A DNA stretch of 64,000 bases from Pseudomonadota bacterium (GTDB taxonomy: Bacteria; Pseudomonadota; Alphaproteobacteria; UBA11222). This document shows positions 24,515 to 47,678 of the stretch, in pieces (the stretch's first letter is position 1; every line of letters begins with the position of its first letter). Below the pieces are notes generated by a model. It was not told the DNA's origin. It ran no database searches and worked only from the letters and a program-made list of their open reading frames with translations. The stretch lies in NCBI GenBank assembly GCA_049323435.1, contig JBMOMX010000008.1:40609-104608 (forward strand), read 5' to 3'. A program made the translations under genes and the position numbers.

Positions 24515-24652
24515 ATTTCAACATCGAACAGGGGCTGGCGCTGGTGCGTATTTGCAGCCATGATGGGGCCGATTAAATAGCGCGGCATCCTCCTTCGCTT
24601 ATGCAATGGAGGAGCTTGAGCTTTGAATAAAGAAAGAATGGGGAGTTTAATC

Positions 24653-25450
24653 ATGAACCGCCTTGACGGAAAAATTGCATTGATTACTGGCGGCGCGCGC
24701 GGCCTTGGCGGGGCATCTGCAAAATTGATGGCTGCCGCCGGCGCCAGCGTGCTGATTACCGATCTGCTGGATGAAGCGGGCGCGGCCACAGTGGACGAAA
24801 TCAAGCGCGCGGGCGGAAAGGCGGCCTACCTGCACCATGATGTGGTAGAGGAAGATGCCTGGATCAAGGCGGTCAAATTCGCTACGGACAGTTTTGGCGG
24901 GCTGGATATTCTGGTCAATAATGCGGGCATTGCCGATGCGGGAAAGCCCATCGTGGACACCACATTCGAATCCTGGCGGCGCGTTATTTCCGTTGATCTG
25001 GACAGCCTGTTTCTAGGCATAAAATATGCGATCCCGGCGCTGGCCGCGCGCGCCCCCAAATGGCCGGGTGGCGGATCGATTATTAATATTTCCTCGATCA
25101 TGGGGCTGATCGCCATGCCCAACGCCGCCTCTTATATCGCAGCCAAGGGCGGCGTGCGGCTGTTGACCAAGGCAGCGGCGGTTGAACTGGCGCCCAGCAA
25201 AATTCGCGTTAATTCCGTGCATCCCGGTTTCACCGAAACCGATATGGTGAAAAACGCATTGAAGGATCTGGGCCGGGGTTCTGGCGCGGGCGAGAATATG
25301 GTGAAGGAAATGATCACCGCGCGCCATCCGATCGGCCGCATGGGCGTGCCGATGGATATTGCCAATGCGGTATGTTTCCTCGCCTCGGATGATTCATCTT
25401 TTATGACCGGATCGGAAGTGGTGGTCGATGGCGGTTATGTTGCGCAATAG
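24653..25450 (+). CDS. SDR-family oxidoreductase, paralog 1 of 3
   Basis: TGGARGLG Rossmann motif. NNAG. Catalytic S...YxxxK (ASYIAAKGG). GGAG RBS 8 nt upstream. Confidence 0.85.
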   Translation: MNRLDGKIALITGGARGLGGASAKLMAAAGASVLITDLLDEAGAATVDEIKRAGGKAAYLHHDVVEEDAWIKAVKFATDSFGGLDILVNNAGIADAGKPIVDTTFESWRRVISVDLDSLFLGIKYAIPALAARAPKWPGGGSIINISSIMGLIAMPNAASYIAAKGGVRLLTKAAAVELAPSKIRVNSVHPGFTETDMVKNALKDLGRGSGAGENMVKEMITARHPIGRMGVPMDIANAVCFLASDDSSFMTGSEVVVDGGYVAQ

Positions 25451-25459
25451 GAGGTCAAA

Positions 25460-26257
25460 ATGAACAGAGTGGATGGAAAAGTGGCGCTGATCAGCGGCGG
25501 CGCGCGCGGCATTGGCGGCATGTCGGCGCGCAAGCTGGCCGAGGCGGGCGCAAAAGTGGTGATCACCGATCTGCGCGAAGACGAGGCGCAGGTGACCCTG
25601 GCCGCGATCAAACAGGCGGGCGGCGAGGCGAAATTTTTCAAGCATGATGTGGCCATTGAAGAACAATGGGAAGCCGCGGTGAAGTTCGCGGTGCAAACCT
25701 ATGGCGGCGTGGATATTCTGCTGAACAATGCCGGTGTCGCGGGCGCGGCCAAGCCGCTGGAGGATTTAAGTCTTGATAGCTGGCGCCGCCTGATGTCGAT
25801 CAATCTGGATGGGGTGTTTCTGGGCATGAAACATGTCATTCCCAGCATGAAATCGCGCGCCCATCTATGGCCGGGCGGCGGATCGATCATCTCGATTTCA
25901 TCCATCATGGGTTTTATCGGCGGCGCGCGCGCCGTGGCCTATTGCGCCAGCAAGGGCGGCGTGCGGCTGATGACAAAGGCGGCGGCGATCGAACTGGCGC
26001 CCGCAAAAATCCGCGTCAATTCGGTGCATCCCGGCTTTATCAATACGCCGCTGCTGCGCGCGGGCGAACAGGCGATGAACCAGCGCCAGGAAGGCGGTTT
26101 TCAGAAATTCGTCGATGATGTGGTGTCGCGCCATCCGCTTGGGCGGCTGGGCGAGGAACAGGATATTGCGCACGCCGTGCGGTTTCTGGCGTCGGATGAT
26201 TCCGCCTTCATGACCGGCACGGAAGTGGTCGTTGATGGCGGCTATCTGGCGCAATAA
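25460..26257 (+). CDS. SDR-family oxidoreductase, paralog 2 of 3
   Basis: Same motif set (SGGARGIGG, NNAG, VAYCASKGG). About 55-65% identical to its neighbours by eye. Confidence 0.85.
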   Translation: MNRVDGKVALISGGARGIGGMSARKLAEAGAKVVITDLREDEAQVTLAAIKQAGGEAKFFKHDVAIEEQWEAAVKFAVQTYGGVDILLNNAGVAGAAKPLEDLSLDSWRRLMSINLDGVFLGMKHVIPSMKSRAHLWPGGGSIISISSIMGFIGGARAVAYCASKGGVRLMTKAAAIELAPAKIRVNSVHPGFINTPLLRAGEQAMNQRQEGGFQKFVDDVVSRHPLGRLGEEQDIAHAVRFLASDDSAFMTGTEVVVDGGYLAQ

Positions 26258-26290
26258 CAATAAGTATAATCAACAGGAAGGAACGCCGTA

Positions 26291-27082
26291 ATGAATAGAA
26301 TGGATGGCAAGATTGCCTTTATTTCCGGCGGCGCACGCGGGCTGGGGGCGGAAACCGCGCGCATGATGGCGGCTTGCGGCGCCAGTGTGGTGATCGGCGA
26401 CATATTGGATGATGCGGGCAAGAACACCGCGGCGCAGATCGTCAGCGATGGCGGCAAGGCGCTCTATACGCATCTGGATGTAACGCAGGAAGACAGCTGG
26501 CAGGCGGCCATCAAGGCAGGCGTCGATAAGTTTGGCGGGCTGGATGTGCTGGTGAATAATGCCGGTATTTTCTTTATGAAAAGCACCGAGGATATGACGC
26601 TGGCCGATTGGCATCGCATGAGCGCCGTCAATCTGGACGGCGTGTTTCTGGGCACCAAAACCGCGCTGCCGCATCTGAAGGCGCGCGCCGCCAAGGCCCC
26701 GGTGGGCGGGGCGATTATCAATCTGTCCTCGATCGCGGGCATTATCGGCATCGCCAATTTCACCGCCTATCATATGTCCAAGGGCGGGGTGCGGATTTAC
26801 ACCAAGGCCTGCGCCATGGAATTTGCGCCCTATCGCATCCGGGTCAATTCCATTCATCCCGGCCTGATCGAAACCGACATGGCTAAACAGGTGGTGAAGG
26901 AAATGAGCGGCGTGATGGGTTCCGACAATGCGGTGCGCGACATGTTTGTGCAAAGCCATCCGATCGGGCGCATTGGCGAACCCAAAGACATTGCCAATGG
27001 GATTGTGTTTCTGGCGTCGGACGACAGCGCCTTCATGACCGGATCGGAACTGGTCGTCGATGGCGGCTGGACCGCGCAATAA
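26291..27082 (+). CDS. SDR-family oxidoreductase, paralog 3 of 3
   Basis: SGGARGLGA, NNAG, TAYHMSKGG. Confidence 0.85.
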   Translation: MNRMDGKIAFISGGARGLGAETARMMAACGASVVIGDILDDAGKNTAAQIVSDGGKALYTHLDVTQEDSWQAAIKAGVDKFGGLDVLVNNAGIFFMKSTEDMTLADWHRMSAVNLDGVFLGTKTALPHLKARAAKAPVGGAIINLSSIAGIIGIANFTAYHMSKGGVRIYTKACAMEFAPYRIRVNSIHPGLIETDMAKQVVKEMSGVMGSDNAVRDMFVQSHPIGRIGEPKDIANGIVFLASDDSAFMTGSELVVDGGWTAQ

Positions 27083-27180
27083 GCTATCGACGTGCGTAGA
27101 TTGACGCATTGACTCACGCAATTCTCAGTGTCACCCCGGACTTGTTCCGGGGTCCAGGGCCGCACGTTAAGGCCTTACAA

Positions 27181-27471
27181 TCATGAAATCAGCGCCGGAT
27201 ATAAATCCCGCCACTGGGGGTTATGTGCCTCAATGACATTAATTTTCCACGCGCGAGGCCATTTCTTCATGCGTTTTTCTTGTCGAATGGCGTCGGCAAT
27301 ATTCGGCGCTTCCTCAAACCATACGAGAGTCTTGACGTTATAGTTGCTGGTGAACCCGCCGGTGACACCATTCTTGTGTTCGTAAACGCGCCGCACAATA
27401 TCATTGGTGACGCCGATATACAGGGTTCCATTTCTATGGCTCGACAGCATGTAAACGTAATAGCTTTTCAT
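27181..27471 (-). CDS. GIY-YIG nuclease family protein (UPF0213/YhbQ-like), cargo of the hairpin-TIR element
   Basis: MKSYYVYMLSSHRNGTLYIGVTNDIVRRVYEHK is a canonical GIY...YIG motif block. About 96 aa. Confidence 0.85.
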   Translation of the reverse strand: MKSYYVYMLSSHRNGTLYIGVTNDIVRRVYEHKNGVTGGFTSNYNVKTLVWFEEAPNIADAIRQEKRMKKWPRAWKINVIEAHNPQWRDLYPALIS

Positions 27472-27541
27472 TGCTGTACGTTCCGGCAAAGGCTTTATAC
27501 CCGTCAACCATTTTCGTATGCGGCCCCTGGACCCCCCTGAG

Positions 27542-28595
27542 TTCACGAATCAAGTGCAACACCCTACAAAGGTGTTGCAATGGGAACAAGCTATGGCCAG
27601 CTCGGCCTTAACGAGCGGATAGAGATTTATCGTTTGCATGCAGACGCTCACTCTCTTCGGTTTATCGCTAAAACGCTTGGCCGGGATGTTTCGACGATCA
27701 GCCGGGAACTGAAGCGTAACAGCAAAAATTCACACCGTTGGCGCGGCGGATACGACCCAGTCCGGGCGCAGGAGCTGACGCAACGCCGCCATGCGCGGGG
27801 ACGAACCTATAAGCTGGAACGCCAGCCGGAACTCCGCAAACAGGTCTTCGGCCACCTTGCAATGGGATGGTCGCCTGAACAGATCGCGGGCCGGCTGACG
27901 CTGGCGCAGGGTAAATCTGTAATCAGCCATGAGTCAATCTACCGTTATATTTATTGGCGCGTCTGGTCGTTCAACGAGAACCTGCATTTGCTGCTGCCAC
28001 GCCATAAACGCAGGCGCGGCAGGCAGCGGCGCAAGGACGGTGGAAGATGGGCAGAGCGCATCCACCGCCGGGTTTCCATTGCAAAACGGCCAAAAAGCGT
28101 CAATGCCCGCCAATGCATCGGCCACTGGGAGGCGGACACAATGGCGTTCTCAAAACAGCAACAGGCCGTGCTGGTCCTGATTGAGCGGCGTTCGCGCTTT
28201 ACCATCCTGCAACCACAAAAAGACAAATCGTCCGTATCAACTGTCAGCATAATGGGCGATGTTCTCAAAGCCTTTGCCCCGTCCAAACGCCGCTCCGTGA
28301 CCATGGATAATGGGCCGGAGTTCACCAAACATTATCTGCTGGCAGATCAGCTTGGCCTCAAAACATGGTTCTGCGACCCGCGCTCACCCTGGCAGAAAGG
28401 CGGCGTCGAAAACACCATCGGACGCTTGCGCCGTGTCTTGCCGAGAAAAACAGACCCAGCCCTGCTAAGCTTCGATGACTTCGTCCGTTTGAGTGAACAA
28501 CATAATACTACACCCAGAAAATGCCTCGGTTACTTGACCCCGAAAGAAGTCTTCCTTAATAGAAAGCCTCAACGTGTTGCACTTCAAACGTGAAT
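27542..28595. mobile_element. IS30-family insertion sequence
   Basis: Imperfect ~23-bp terminal IRs (TTCACGAATCAAGTGCAACACC ... CGTGTTGCACTTCAAACGTGAA, 18/23 matches). 1054 bp. The right IR overlaps the transposase stop, as is typical for IS30. Confidence 0.8.
27580..28593 (+). CDS. IS30-family DDE transposase
   Basis: N-terminal HTH region, IGHWEADTM (IS30 GHWEGD motif), rve-type DDE core. 337 aa. Confidence 0.9.
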   Translation: MGTSYGQLGLNERIEIYRLHADAHSLRFIAKTLGRDVSTISRELKRNSKNSHRWRGGYDPVRAQELTQRRHARGRTYKLERQPELRKQVFGHLAMGWSPEQIAGRLTLAQGKSVISHESIYRYIYWRVWSFNENLHLLLPRHKRRRGRQRRKDGGRWAERIHRRVSIAKRPKSVNARQCIGHWEADTMAFSKQQQAVLVLIERRSRFTILQPQKDKSSVSTVSIMGDVLKAFAPSKRRSVTMDNGPEFTKHYLLADQLGLKTWFCDPRSPWQKGGVENTIGRLRRVLPRKTDPALLSFDDFVRLSEQHNTTPRKCLGYLTPKEVFLNRKPQRVALQT

Positions 28596-28976
28596 CCACA
28601 CCCGCAACAAGTGCGGGGTGACACCGGGTGTGGCAAAGCTTCAAGCTAAAAATAATTTCAGTTCGTCCTCCGACGAAACCTAACCGGGCTTTATGACTCG
28701 TATGTCATTGCCATTGCATTCGGAACACACCCAATTTTCTCTGATTTAGCCTTTCGCGTCAGTCCCCCCAGCACCACTGTATAGTCTGGCCGCCCGGGCT
28801 CCACAAAAACGGCAAATATCTGCCGGCCATTTTCCTCCGAGTTTTGCCTCAAGCGCGCTGATGCGGGCTTTGAGGTCATCTACCTCCTCCGGAACTTGAT
28901 GAAGCCGCTTCCAGATAGGAATGCGATCCAAAGCACTGAGCATGTCCTCAACTACGCCTATAGACCCCTCCCCTCA

Positions 28977-40457: not shown

Positions 40458-40687
40458 GTCATTGCTGTAAGAGTCAGACAATTCGCTGACAAGATTGCGG
40501 CGTTAATGGACTTAAAAAACGCTGTCACCCCGCACTTGTTGCGGGGTCCAGGGTTACAAACTCAGGCCTTCATTTGAGACTCCTGGACCCCGGAATAAAT
40601 CCGGGGTGACAATCTTTTTTAAGTCTTCGAACCTTCACTTAACCCAGGTTTCTTGTCAGCGAATTATCTGACTTCTACAGCAATGAC
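40458..40687. repeat. 230-bp nested palindromic element. 36-bp outer inverted repeats (GTCATTGCTGTAAGAGTCAGACAATTCGCTGACAAG / rc) enclose an 89-bp MITE.
   Basis: Outer arms 40458-40493 and 40652-40687 match 34/36 as reverse complements. Inner flanks ACTTAAAAAA / TTTTTTAAGT are also inverted. Confidence 0.75.
40523..40611. repeat. 89-bp MITE with hairpin TIRs (TGTCACCCCGCA...TCCGGGGTGACA) and internal GGTCCAGG/CCTGGACC repeat. Miniature derivative of the GIY-YIG element at 27.1 kb.
   Basis: Termini identical to the ends of the 27129-28623 element. Each end is itself a 8-9-bp-stem hairpin. Confidence 0.75.
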
Positions 40688-46408: not shown

Positions 46409-46529
46409 CCCCTGTGGATACTGACGGCGCTGACGGCGCGGCCATTAGCGCTTTTCGCATCGCGCGCTGTGCGCTATGCTTGCATCTGTCCAATAGCGCA
46501 TATTGCAGCATTTTCACGGTAAGAGGCAG

Positions 46530-47489
46530 ATGAGCGAGACTAAAAAACCCGGCCGGGGCCGTATCTATGACAATATCACCCAGACCATCGGCGATACGCC
46601 GCTGGTGCGGCTGAACCGGCTTGCGAAAGAGGCGGGCGTTGGCGCGGATATTCTGCTGAAGCTGGAATTTTTCAATCCGCTGGCCAGTGTCAAGGACCGT
46701 ATCGGCGTCGCCATGATCGAGGATATGGAGACGAAAGGAAGGCTCAAGCCCGACACGGTGATCATTGAACCGACATCCGGAAATACCGGTATCGCGCTGG
46801 CCTTTGTGTGCGCCGCAAAGGGTTATAAATTAATTCTGGTCATGCCGGACAGCATGTCGATTGAACGGCGCAAAATGTTCGCCCTGCTGGGCGCGGAACT
46901 GGAATTGACGCCGGCCGCAAAGGGGATGCGCGGCGCCATCGCCCGCGCCGAGGAATTACTGGCCGCCCATCCGGGCTCGGTGATGGCGCAGCAGTTTGAA
47001 AATCCCGCCAATCCGGAAATTCACCGCCGCACCACGGCGGAAGAAATCTGGAACGACACCCAGGGCAAGGTCGATGTGGTTATTTCGGGGGTCGGCACCG
47101 GCGGCACCTTTACCGGCGTGGGATCTGTGTTGAAGGCGCGCAAGCCCGGCATGAAAATGATCGCCGTCGAACCCGAAGACAGCCCGATCCTGTCGGGCGG
47201 CCAGCCCGGCCCGCATAAGATTCAGGGCATCGGCGCGGGCTTTGTGCCGGACAATCTGGACCGTGCGCTGGTGGACGAAGTGATCACCATCGGCAATGAA
47301 AATGCGTTCGAGATGGCGCGCAGGCTGGCGCGGCTGGAAGGCATTCCCGGCGGTATTTCATCGGGCGCGGCGGTGGCGGCGGCGCTGGAGGTCGGCGTGC
47401 GGCCCGACATGAAAGGCAAAACCATCGTCGTCATCATACCGTCATTCGCGGAACGCTATCTATCGACGGCGCTGTTCGAGGGGCTGTGA
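46530..47489 (+). CDS. cysK: Cysteine synthase A (O-acetylserine sulfhydrylase)
   Basis: PLP-lysine region ([11 protein letters not shown]), [18 protein letters not shown] motifs. Confidence 0.9.
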
Positions 47490-47504: not shown

Positions 47505-47529
47505 TGTCACCCCGCACTTGTTGCGGGGT
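47505..47529. repeat. Solo 25-bp REP-like hairpin (TGTCACCCCGCA-CTTGT-TGCGGGGT), the minimal unit of the MITE family
   Basis: Identical to the MITE terminal hairpin. Sits 16 bp after the cysK stop. Confidence 0.7.
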
Positions 47530-47558: not shown

Positions 47559-47678
47559 GACCCAACCCCCTCCCTGTCCCTCCCCCTTTCAGGGGGAGGG
47601 AACGCAAGATGGAACGCCTCCCTCCCCCTGAAAGGGGGCCTGAAGATGCAGGTACCAATAAGGGTTGGGGTGGGGGTC
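47559..47678. repeat. Complex C-run/G-run palindromic element with three interlocking hairpins
   Basis: CCCTCCCCC-TTTCA-GGGGGAGGG (47578-47600, perfect 9-bp stem). GGGGGAGGGA ... TCCCTCCCCC (47592-47628, 10-bp stem). CCCCC-TGAAA-GGGGG (47624-47638). Flanked by CCCAACCCCCTCCC and GGGTTGGGGTGGGGG. Confidence 0.7.

Follow-up and report, generated by a model that had tools for sequence, protein, structure and literature searches.

The stretch of DNA analysed here (the window; 64,000 nucleotides, positions 40,609 to 104,608 of contig JBMOMX010000008.1) comes from an uncultured alphaproteobacterium near Parvibaculaceae and carries, at 27129-28623, a small GIY-YIG nuclease gene between hairpin repeats, one of which is interrupted by an insertion sequence (IS). 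The gene, ssn, occupies 27181-27471 on the minus strand and encodes a single-domain GIY-YIG protein of 96 aa that belongs to the Ssn family. On the 3' side of the gene lies the left Ssn-related motif (SRM; 27129-27157, plus strand), a TGTC-tagged repetitive extragenic palindrome (REP) in which TGTC is followed by an 8-bp stem ACCCCGGA/TCCGGGGT with CTTGT as its loop and then by CCAG as the tail; its fold as single-stranded DNA (ssDNA) is -9.1 kcal/mol. The left subterminal arm GGTCCAGGGCCGCACG (27151-27166) is the inverted partner of 27515-27535, which reads CGTATGCGGCCCCTGGACCCC, comprises the right subterminal arm together with the first bases of the right hairpin, and stops at the IS insertion point. 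Between them, the two arms give the gene-bearing spacer its complementary ends. The inverted repeats were recovered as I1 (terminal) and I17 (subterminal). The left end of the unit reads TGTCACCCCGGACTTGTTCCGGGGTCCAGGGCCGCACG and the right end is its inverted, slightly different counterpart CCCGCAACAAGTGCGGGGTGACA. Beyond the IS, the minus strand retains the right SRM remnant TGTCACCCCGCACTTGTTGCGGG (28601-28623), which no longer fits the SRM pattern because the IS has split off its last stem base and TCCAG tail.

The IS belongs to the IS30 family and spans 27536-28600 on the plus strand (1065 bp), with a transposase open reading frame (ORF) at 27580-28593 and 27-bp imperfect inverted repeats. 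Its product matches the NCBIfam model transpos_IS30 (E=6e-70) and contains HTH_38 and rve domains. The element boundaries and a 3-bp CCC target duplication, one copy of which is 27533-27535, were set by alignment with an IS-free allele of the same locus (L005; loci compared with the window carry the prefix L), and a second such allele, L009, is also available. The insertion site is the inner stem arm of the right-end hairpin, on the side of the tail and the gene, and neither the ssn ORF nor its 64-bp upstream region is affected. In the IS-free alleles the right end is complete (TGTCACCCCGGACTTGTTCCGGGGTCCAGG) and fits the SRM pattern. The intact unit there measures 427 bp (L005 459-885), and its two ends carry identical copies of the 25-nt hairpin motif (TGTCACCCCGGACTTGTTCCGGGGT). 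An earlier note on this DNA had described a GIY-YIG ORF inside a hairpin-bounded unit of ~441 bp, with self-folding termini, inverted subterminal segments and an IS30-family element in its right end; apart from the length of the unit, that description was borne out.

The 96-aa protein matches the Pfam GIY-YIG family (PF01541, E=5e-16, residues 4-78). No further family passed its curated cut-off; the one additional match, to T5orf172, overlaps the first and scored 19.3 bits, below its cut-off of 20, and the NCBIfam search returned no model matching the protein. A sequence search of the PDB retrieved only the distant UPF0213 structures 1zg2 and 1ywl (E ~1e-4 to 4e-3). Among the 120 matches listed, homologues are mostly 94-99 aa long. 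Residues Y7, Y18 and E65 are intact in the window protein and invariant in an alignment of 30 homologues (A1), and a protein identical over all 96 aa is encoded by public metagenome contigs. The characterised reference for this family is SsnA of Neisseria meningitidis, a 94-aa single-domain GIY-YIG protein (CDD cd10448) that binds the hairpin repeat CGTCATTCCCGCGMAVGCGGGAATCYRG only as ssDNA and on one strand only (Chenal 2025, Nat Commun 16:2388, PMC11893778). SsnA is a site-specific ssDNA endonuclease that cuts a few nucleotides upstream of the repeat, just outside the motif and in its variable flank; the residues mutated in it are the catalytic tyrosines Y6 and Y17 and the metal-binding E64 (PMC11893778). 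Four purified Ssn homologues each cleave their own motif and do not act on RNA (PMC11893778). BLASTP comparison of the window protein with the 94-aa SsnA ortholog of N. gonorrhoeae, which has Y6/Y17/E64 and nine copies of the Neisseria repeat NTS within 3.3 kb around its gene, gave 54% identity (E=8e-38). With tblastn against the N. gonorrhoeae chromosome the value was E=6e-27, well inside the E<1e-10 used by Chenal 2025 to define Ssn homology, the comparison being with the gonococcal ortholog. Two PLSDB entries, NZ_CP119140.1 and NZ_CP119142.1, are 2.17-Mb N. gonorrhoeae records that carry this ssnA ortholog and an NTS cluster, and are evidently chromosomes mislabelled as plasmids.

The 25-mer TGTCACCCCGsACTTGTTsCGGGGT occurs five times in the window (27129+, 28599-, 40523+, 40587- and 47505+), where dinucleotide shuffles of the window give an expectation of 0. 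The five hairpins make up one head-to-head heterodimer, the gene-bearing pair and a single copy, and each forms an 8-bp stem and a 5-nt loop when folded as ssDNA. The heterodimer is a gene-less element of 89 bp (40523-40611) with halves at 40523-40551(+) and 40583-40611(-) and a spacer with complementary ends CCAGG...CCTGG; as ssDNA it folds with -28.8 kcal/mol (z=-6.9). The solo hairpin TGTCACCCCGCACTTGTTGCGGGGT (47505-47529, plus strand) lacks the TCCAG tail, lies 16 bp past the stop codon of the ORF at 46503-47489 and folds with -9.9 kcal/mol (z=-4.9). Both of these derivatives are present as the earlier note described them. The published SRM pattern, HGTCWYN(0-2)YYVSBRHN(0-5)WNVSBRGN(0-2)RNCYNB, matches the window only at 27129-27157(+) and at the two halves of the dimer, three matches against a shuffle mean of 0.25; the solo hairpin does not match the full pattern. 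The motif order in the window, TGTC, ACCCCGGA, CTTGT, TCCGGGGT, CCA, corresponds position for position to the anatomy of NTS, namely GTCA, a 7-8 bp stem, a loop and then TC-YRG. Hairpin variants GCA/TGC and GGATTTATTCC both occur. No known RNA family fits, since an Rfam search of both loci at permissive thresholds returned sub-threshold noise only (Hrs1, bxd_2, MIR1319). Published mutagenesis found the base after the palindrome to be the most important for binding (PMC11893778). Because the IS30 insertion removes this base, it has probably abolished recognition of the right end and left that motif inactive in the window allele.

The SRMs and the REPs with a CGTC or TGTC tag are one and the same kind of repeat. 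In Di Nocera, De Gregorio and Rocco (2013, PMC3733652), CGTC-tagged REPs are described as having a CGTC or TGTC tag, an 8-9 bp stem that opens with A-T, a 4-5 nt loop and a CCA tail. According to this paper they are mostly alphaproteobacterial, and most are arranged as head-to-head dimers, many of them heterodimers, in which the two ends of the spacer are complementary. The paper distinguishes families CGTC-1 to CGTC-4, which include dRS3 of Neisseria and RPE-4 and RPE-6 of Rickettsia, states that these repeats 'apparently lack a dedicated transposase' and suggests RNA-level roles for them. The window hairpins share the TGTC tag, the 8-bp stem opening with A-T, the 5-nt loop and the CCA tail of this description, and the 89-bp element (40523-40611), with its two SRMs head to head, is a heterodimer of exactly the type described. 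Judged by stem and loop lengths, the window hairpins most likely belong to CGTC-2. The element class, its architecture, the activity of the enzyme and the analogy to transposons are all already published. NTS-ssnA-NTS has been likened to an insertion sequence, to IS200/IS605 and to REP/RAYT, with domestication proposed (PMC11893778). The earlier note was not aware of GIY-YIG-carrying REP-like units as an established class, a view that is out of date (Chenal 2025, PMC11893778; Di Nocera 2013, PMC3733652), and the window adds no new kind of system because the class is already in the literature. The window copy is an uncharacterised Ssn member with a hairpin variant distinct from the four tested pairs.

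The association between hairpins and GIY-YIG genes is not unique to the window. It was surveyed from the gene side in 84 metagenomic homologues, 51-64% identical to the window protein, with a generic detector (TGTCA, a 7-bp stem, a loop of 3-7 nt and a 7-bp stem) that gave one false site in the whole window. TGTCA-hairpins were found within 300 bp of the gene in 55 of the 84 homologues, 32 of which have them on both sides and 23 on a single side, with none in the remaining 29; the background of the detector in this survey was 26 sites in 211 kb. The SRMs face overwhelmingly outward (upstream, 27 plus vs 5 minus; downstream, 48 minus vs 9 plus). These figures resemble the published ones for Ssn homologues across phyla, 71% with at least one SRM and 42% with SRMs on both sides (PMC11893778). 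The SRM-rich genomes of that study each contain more than 200 motifs. The commonest hairpin at the homologue loci is TGTCATTCCCGCGAAAGCGGGAA, i.e. Neisseria NTS. In Fibrobacter (L080), a homologue 53% identical to the window protein is bounded by the same TGTCACCCCGG... hairpin, arranged as TGTCA-hairpin ... hairpin-TGACA. The core inference of the earlier note is right: the partner of this REP-like hairpin family is a small GIY-YIG nuclease and not a tyrosine transposase. The converse survey started from the hairpin: one genome per species was searched with the query TGTCACCCCGNAYTTRTTNCGGGG, which retrieved at least 117 loci in Alphaproteobacteria, Rickettsiales, Gammaproteobacteria, Fibrobacter, Treponema, Ignavibacteriota, Bacteroidota and Planctomycetota, where the hairpin occurs singly, as a perfect palindrome or as an inverted doublet of 60-120 nt. 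Among the matches listed, a GIY-YIG gene lay within the 8-kb stretch at 1 of 117 hairpin loci, the Fibrobacter locus L080.

A further observation was made on the hairpins of other genomes, of which 17 of 135 have one to three tandem partial copies of their own 5' half within 60 nt outside the TGTCA end (loci L044 (~411-434, minus), L015, L039, L042, L071, L120 and L127), with 0 of 124 in a control window. In one example TGTCACCCCGCACTTGTTGCT is repeated three times and followed by the full hairpin. None of these half-hairpin arrays occurs at the window's own hairpin copies. Because Ssn is reported to cut at this place, cleavage followed by repair may have left the arrays behind, or they may stem from slippage.

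The covariation of paired positions points to selection on the hairpin structure. A search pattern that leaves two stem positions free retrieved 140 hairpins, and the free positions are Watson-Crick paired in 138 of them (G-C 58, C-G 62, A-T 18), in keeping with the compensatory changes that the earlier note had seen between the window copies. Two loop positions of the same 140 hairpins co-vary as well (C..G 99, T..A 36, mixed 5). At the right end of the window locus, a double change that preserves pairing, GGA/TCC vs GCA/TGC, separates the alleles without the IS from the one that carries it. In L230 (GCA_023252275.1), both end hairpins carry the identical derived base (GGACTTGATCC), and this shared change indicates concerted evolution of the two ends.

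The gene order methylmalonyl-CoA mutase, metallo-β-lactamase fold (MBL) hydrolase, small ORF, ssn and short-chain dehydrogenase/reductase (SDR) cluster is kept in L230 and L231, where identity to the window is 79-86% for Ssn and 89-95% for its neighbours. The shared syntenic position implies that ssn has been resident at the locus since these lineages split. Arms of the form GGTCCAGrGCCrC flank the gene on both sides in L230 and L231 and on the upstream side only in L228 (GCA_947085295.1), whose ssn gene is 79% identical and lies among other neighbours. In L010, a single 516-bp metagenomic contig with one junction only, 424 bp are 100% identical to the unit; the homology ends exactly at ...GGGGTGACA and gives way to an unrelated flank, which neither the window nor any of the loci compared contains. 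Copies of the 89-bp dimer lie at unrelated sites in L060 (93% identity) and L228 (91%), making three genomes with the window, and the similarity starts and stops sharply at TGTCA/TGACA. No target-site duplication borders the unit or any of the three copies of the dimer.

The earlier note had proposed that empty and filled sites be compared in related strains. Presence/absence polymorphism does exist, at the two places described next, but in each case it is a block replacement that does not end at the repeat termini, and no pair of sites differing exactly by the element, precise to those termini, was found. The first place is the spacer between the enoyl-CoA hydratase (ECH) and CheZ genes, which holds the 89-bp dimer and is either 25 bp or 325 bp long. 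Here a composite block of 310 bp replaces 10 bp, with no intermediate form seen; this 310-bp block is the whole unit of presence/absence between the two genes among strains. Within it the dimer appears to be nested in the centre of a palindromic element (40458-40687) with 49-nt arms that are 84% complementary (GTCATTGCTGTAAGAGTCAGACAATTCGCTGACAAG...). No other copy of this outer element occurs in any sequence compared. The second place is the spacer between the MBL and SDR genes. In L219 both flanking genes are kept, the whole spacer is taken up by a YafQ toxin-antitoxin module and another gene, and no hairpin is left. A precise empty site of the ssn unit was not found among L219 and the MBL orthologues (83-90% identity, with different downstream genes). 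The exact SDR neighbour protein has no database record, and the exact MBL protein is recorded only on the same contig. The MBL-SDR spacer (window 28624-28976 vs L219 2867-4516) is a variable cassette site: in the window lineage it contains a 62-aa ORF and the ssn unit, in the relative with a 90%-identical MBL (L219) a YafQ-type toxin-antitoxin pair and a PEP-CTERM protein, and in more distant relatives unrelated genes follow the MBL gene.

The ORF at 27181-27471 is very probably an Ssn-family nuclease (~95-aa single-domain GIY-YIG), the flanking and dispersed hairpins its cognate SRMs, and the locus a long-resident one. The family membership of the protein, the match of the hairpins to the published motif, the gene-hairpin association, the pairing covariation and the conserved synteny are shown by the present analysis. 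By homology with the four characterised homologues, the window protein is expected to cleave ssDNA at a corresponding position. The protein would bind the hairpin only in single-stranded DNA, on the strand reading TGTCA-stem-loop-stem-TCCAG, and would then hydrolyse that strand a few nucleotides 5' of the motif, i.e. just outside each end of the unit. As the ends of the unit are inverted, each strand would offer one cleavable, outward-facing motif. In this lineage the gene is a vertically inherited locus of long standing, and the same hairpins are dispersed over the genome as head-to-head dimers and singletons. The role of the cleavage could be the restriction of SRM-bearing ssDNA, the shaping of recombination, or the spread of repeats by nick and repair.

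Several points weigh against this assignment. The strict detector found no hairpin at 29 of the 84 homologues. The tested Ssn enzymes act on NTS, NTSvar and a Wolbachia motif (PMC11893778), whereas the window variant has an 8-bp stem and a 5-nt loop. The role in natural transformation known from Neisseria need not apply to an uncultured alphaproteobacterium. Finally, the second context of the unit in L010 and the dispersed 89-bp dimers suggest that the system is not purely a static host gene.

The window system shares with Ssn/NTS a ~95-aa single-domain GIY-YIG protein that has the same catalytic residues, outward-facing SRM-pattern hairpins on both sides of the gene (the right one in the IS-free alleles) and a motif that is also dispersed elsewhere. 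It differs in its stem, ACCCCGsA, and 5-nt loop, CTTGT/TTTAT, where NTS has ATTCCCGCG and a 4-nt loop, and in having one motif per side where Neisseria has large clusters. Its host is also different, and one of its ends is interrupted by IS30.

Whether the nuclease mobilises the repeats is unproven, both for the window unit and in the literature. A homing-like process would convert a site by gene conversion instead of transposition: a nick in ssDNA beside a hairpin, for example at a replication fork, would be repaired from another copy. Cleavage just outside the motif in the variable flank (PMC11893778) is consistent with such a process, as are the derived change common to both L230 ends, the double pair-preserving difference between the IS-free and IS-bearing right ends, the half-hairpin arrays at the expected cut and the faster divergence of ssn than of its neighbours. 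However, replication slippage at hairpins could produce the arrays without a nuclease, concerted change could reflect selection for recognition by a co-evolving protein, and all of this support is indirect, with no converted site demonstrated. We regard homing-like spread as doubtful. It is similarly unlikely that the SRM-ssn-SRM unit and the gene-less dimers are actively mobile, through an Ssn nick outside the hairpin followed by copy-repair or template switching. The unit in L010, the 89-bp dimers in three genomes, the concerted L230 ends and the half-hairpin arrays are compatible with active mobility, and if it were true, Ssn-dependent spread would be a mechanism of mobility unlike that of every known transposase class.

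The earlier note had seen the locus as a mini-transposon mobilised by its own nuclease, and this part of it was not established. On such an account the 427-bp unit would be autonomous, with the GIY-YIG protein as its transposase and the doublets and solo hairpins as non-autonomous derivatives, analogous to miniature inverted-repeat transposable elements or REPINs. The architecture is indeed that of an IS, with ~40-bp inverted ends around a single small gene. The fully identical copy with a sharp stop and a different flank in L010, the sharply ending dimers at unrelated sites and the occurrence of the same hairpin sequence beside homologues in different phyla also point this way, and the authors of the Ssn paper raise a possible mobile-element reading too (PMC11893778). 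However, GIY-YIG enzymes are hydrolytic, and for Ssn proteins only cutting has been reported, with neither strand transfer nor a covalent intermediate nor rejoining (PMC11893778). Each unit offers only one correctly oriented motif per strand, so that single-strand excision of the IS200/IS605 kind is not obviously possible. There is no target-site duplication, ssn occupies the same syntenic site in L230 and L231, both presence/absence polymorphisms are block replacements, and L010 is a lone 516-bp contig. An autonomous mini-transposon is thus improbable, and more so than homing-like spread. It is hardly credible that the hairpins are REPs of the usual kind, which stabilise or terminate transcripts or act as structural sites, and that their position by the GIY-YIG gene is meaningless: the low yield of GIY-YIG genes from the hairpin side, the solo hairpin just past a stop codon, like many REPs, and the RNA-level roles suggested in Di Nocera 2013 (PMC3733652) would agree with it, but the gene-side association is strong, oriented and found across phyla, the motif beside its own gene is bound and cut by each purified Ssn protein, whereas RNA is not acted on (PMC11893778), and the hairpins have no T-run.

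With the REP/REPIN-RAYT and IS200/IS605 systems, the window system shares short hairpin repeats dispersed as singlets and inverted doublets. As in REP/RAYT, a single-copy gene is flanked by the repeats, its product acts (for the window protein, by homology) on an ssDNA hairpin, and domestication is debated. REP/RAYT systems are recognised by a gene for an HUH Y1 transposase; the window gene instead encodes a GIY-YIG protein, and its repeats are TGTC-tagged. Ssn is a hydrolytic nuclease, whereas the HUH enzyme forms a covalent 5'-phosphotyrosine link and rejoins DNA. Ssn repeats carry a CGTC/TGTC tag and not GTAG, and no transposition chemistry is known for Ssn.

The value of the window lies in the natural material that it offers for the question left by the 2013 and 2025 papers, namely how CGTC/SRM repeats multiply and whether Ssn is responsible. 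Public metagenomes provide several handles on this lineage: one locus is represented both with and without the IS, the unit may have a second insertion site, and the 89-bp dimers form a conserved family. Samples in which this strain is present are ERZ27235084-98, ERZ27299535 and JGI 3300005956, 3300006003 and 3300026838. Orthologous loci at 79-86% protein identity, with concerted or compensatory hairpin change, are a further handle. The pairing of an Ssn protein with a hairpin of 8-bp stem and 5-nt loop would be relevant if Ssn enzymes become tools for cutting ssDNA.

In all junctions seen, the IS30 element occupied one fixed hairpin position, which follows sCGGG and is marked by a 3-bp duplication of GGG/CCC. 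These junctions comprise the window locus and three more outer flanks in metagenome contigs (L002, L003/L006 and L007). An 87%-identical IS lies in the opposite orientation at the same hairpin position in an alphaproteobacterial metagenome-assembled genome from Lake Baikal (L099 5700-6900). All this suggests an IS30 lineage with SRM/CGTC hairpins as its specific target. Insertion sequences that target REPs are known, such as IS1397, ISPpu9/10 and ISRm22 and, in Neisseria, IS1106 and IS1655 (Tobes and Pareja 2006, PMC1525189). The window element resembles these in holding one fixed hairpin position, in a different genome as well; it differs in that its target is an SRM/CGTC-type hairpin and in being a distinct IS30 lineage of freshwater or soil alphaproteobacteria. 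In L002, L003, L006 and L007 the ssn gene is joined to the other flanks only via the 1-kb IS30. These contigs are possible assembly chimeras and were rejected as contexts of the ssn gene, so that only their hairpin-IS junctions were used. Another contig, L008 (Logan SRR22388344_17809), has the same 20-nt outer flank inverted at both ends and was rejected as a circular or excised form. Its inverted flanks most likely arose in de Bruijn-graph assembly, as an artefact to which the palindromic ends of the unit gave rise, and it serves as a caution against taking such contigs for circular or excised forms.

Two further features of the window deserve mention. About 50 nt past the solo hairpin, at 47582-47638, a perfect 20-nt inverted repeat (CCCCCTTTCAGGGGGAGGGA / TCCCTCCCCCTGAAAGGGGG) forms a different REP-like dimer, each arm of which can itself form a hairpin. 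Next to the ssn unit, 24623-27082 contains three tandem SDR paralogues of 275, 265 and 263 aa, the 263-aa copy being 51-57% identical to the other two. In L230 and L231 a fourth SDR copy is located between ssn and the orthologue of the 263-aa gene.

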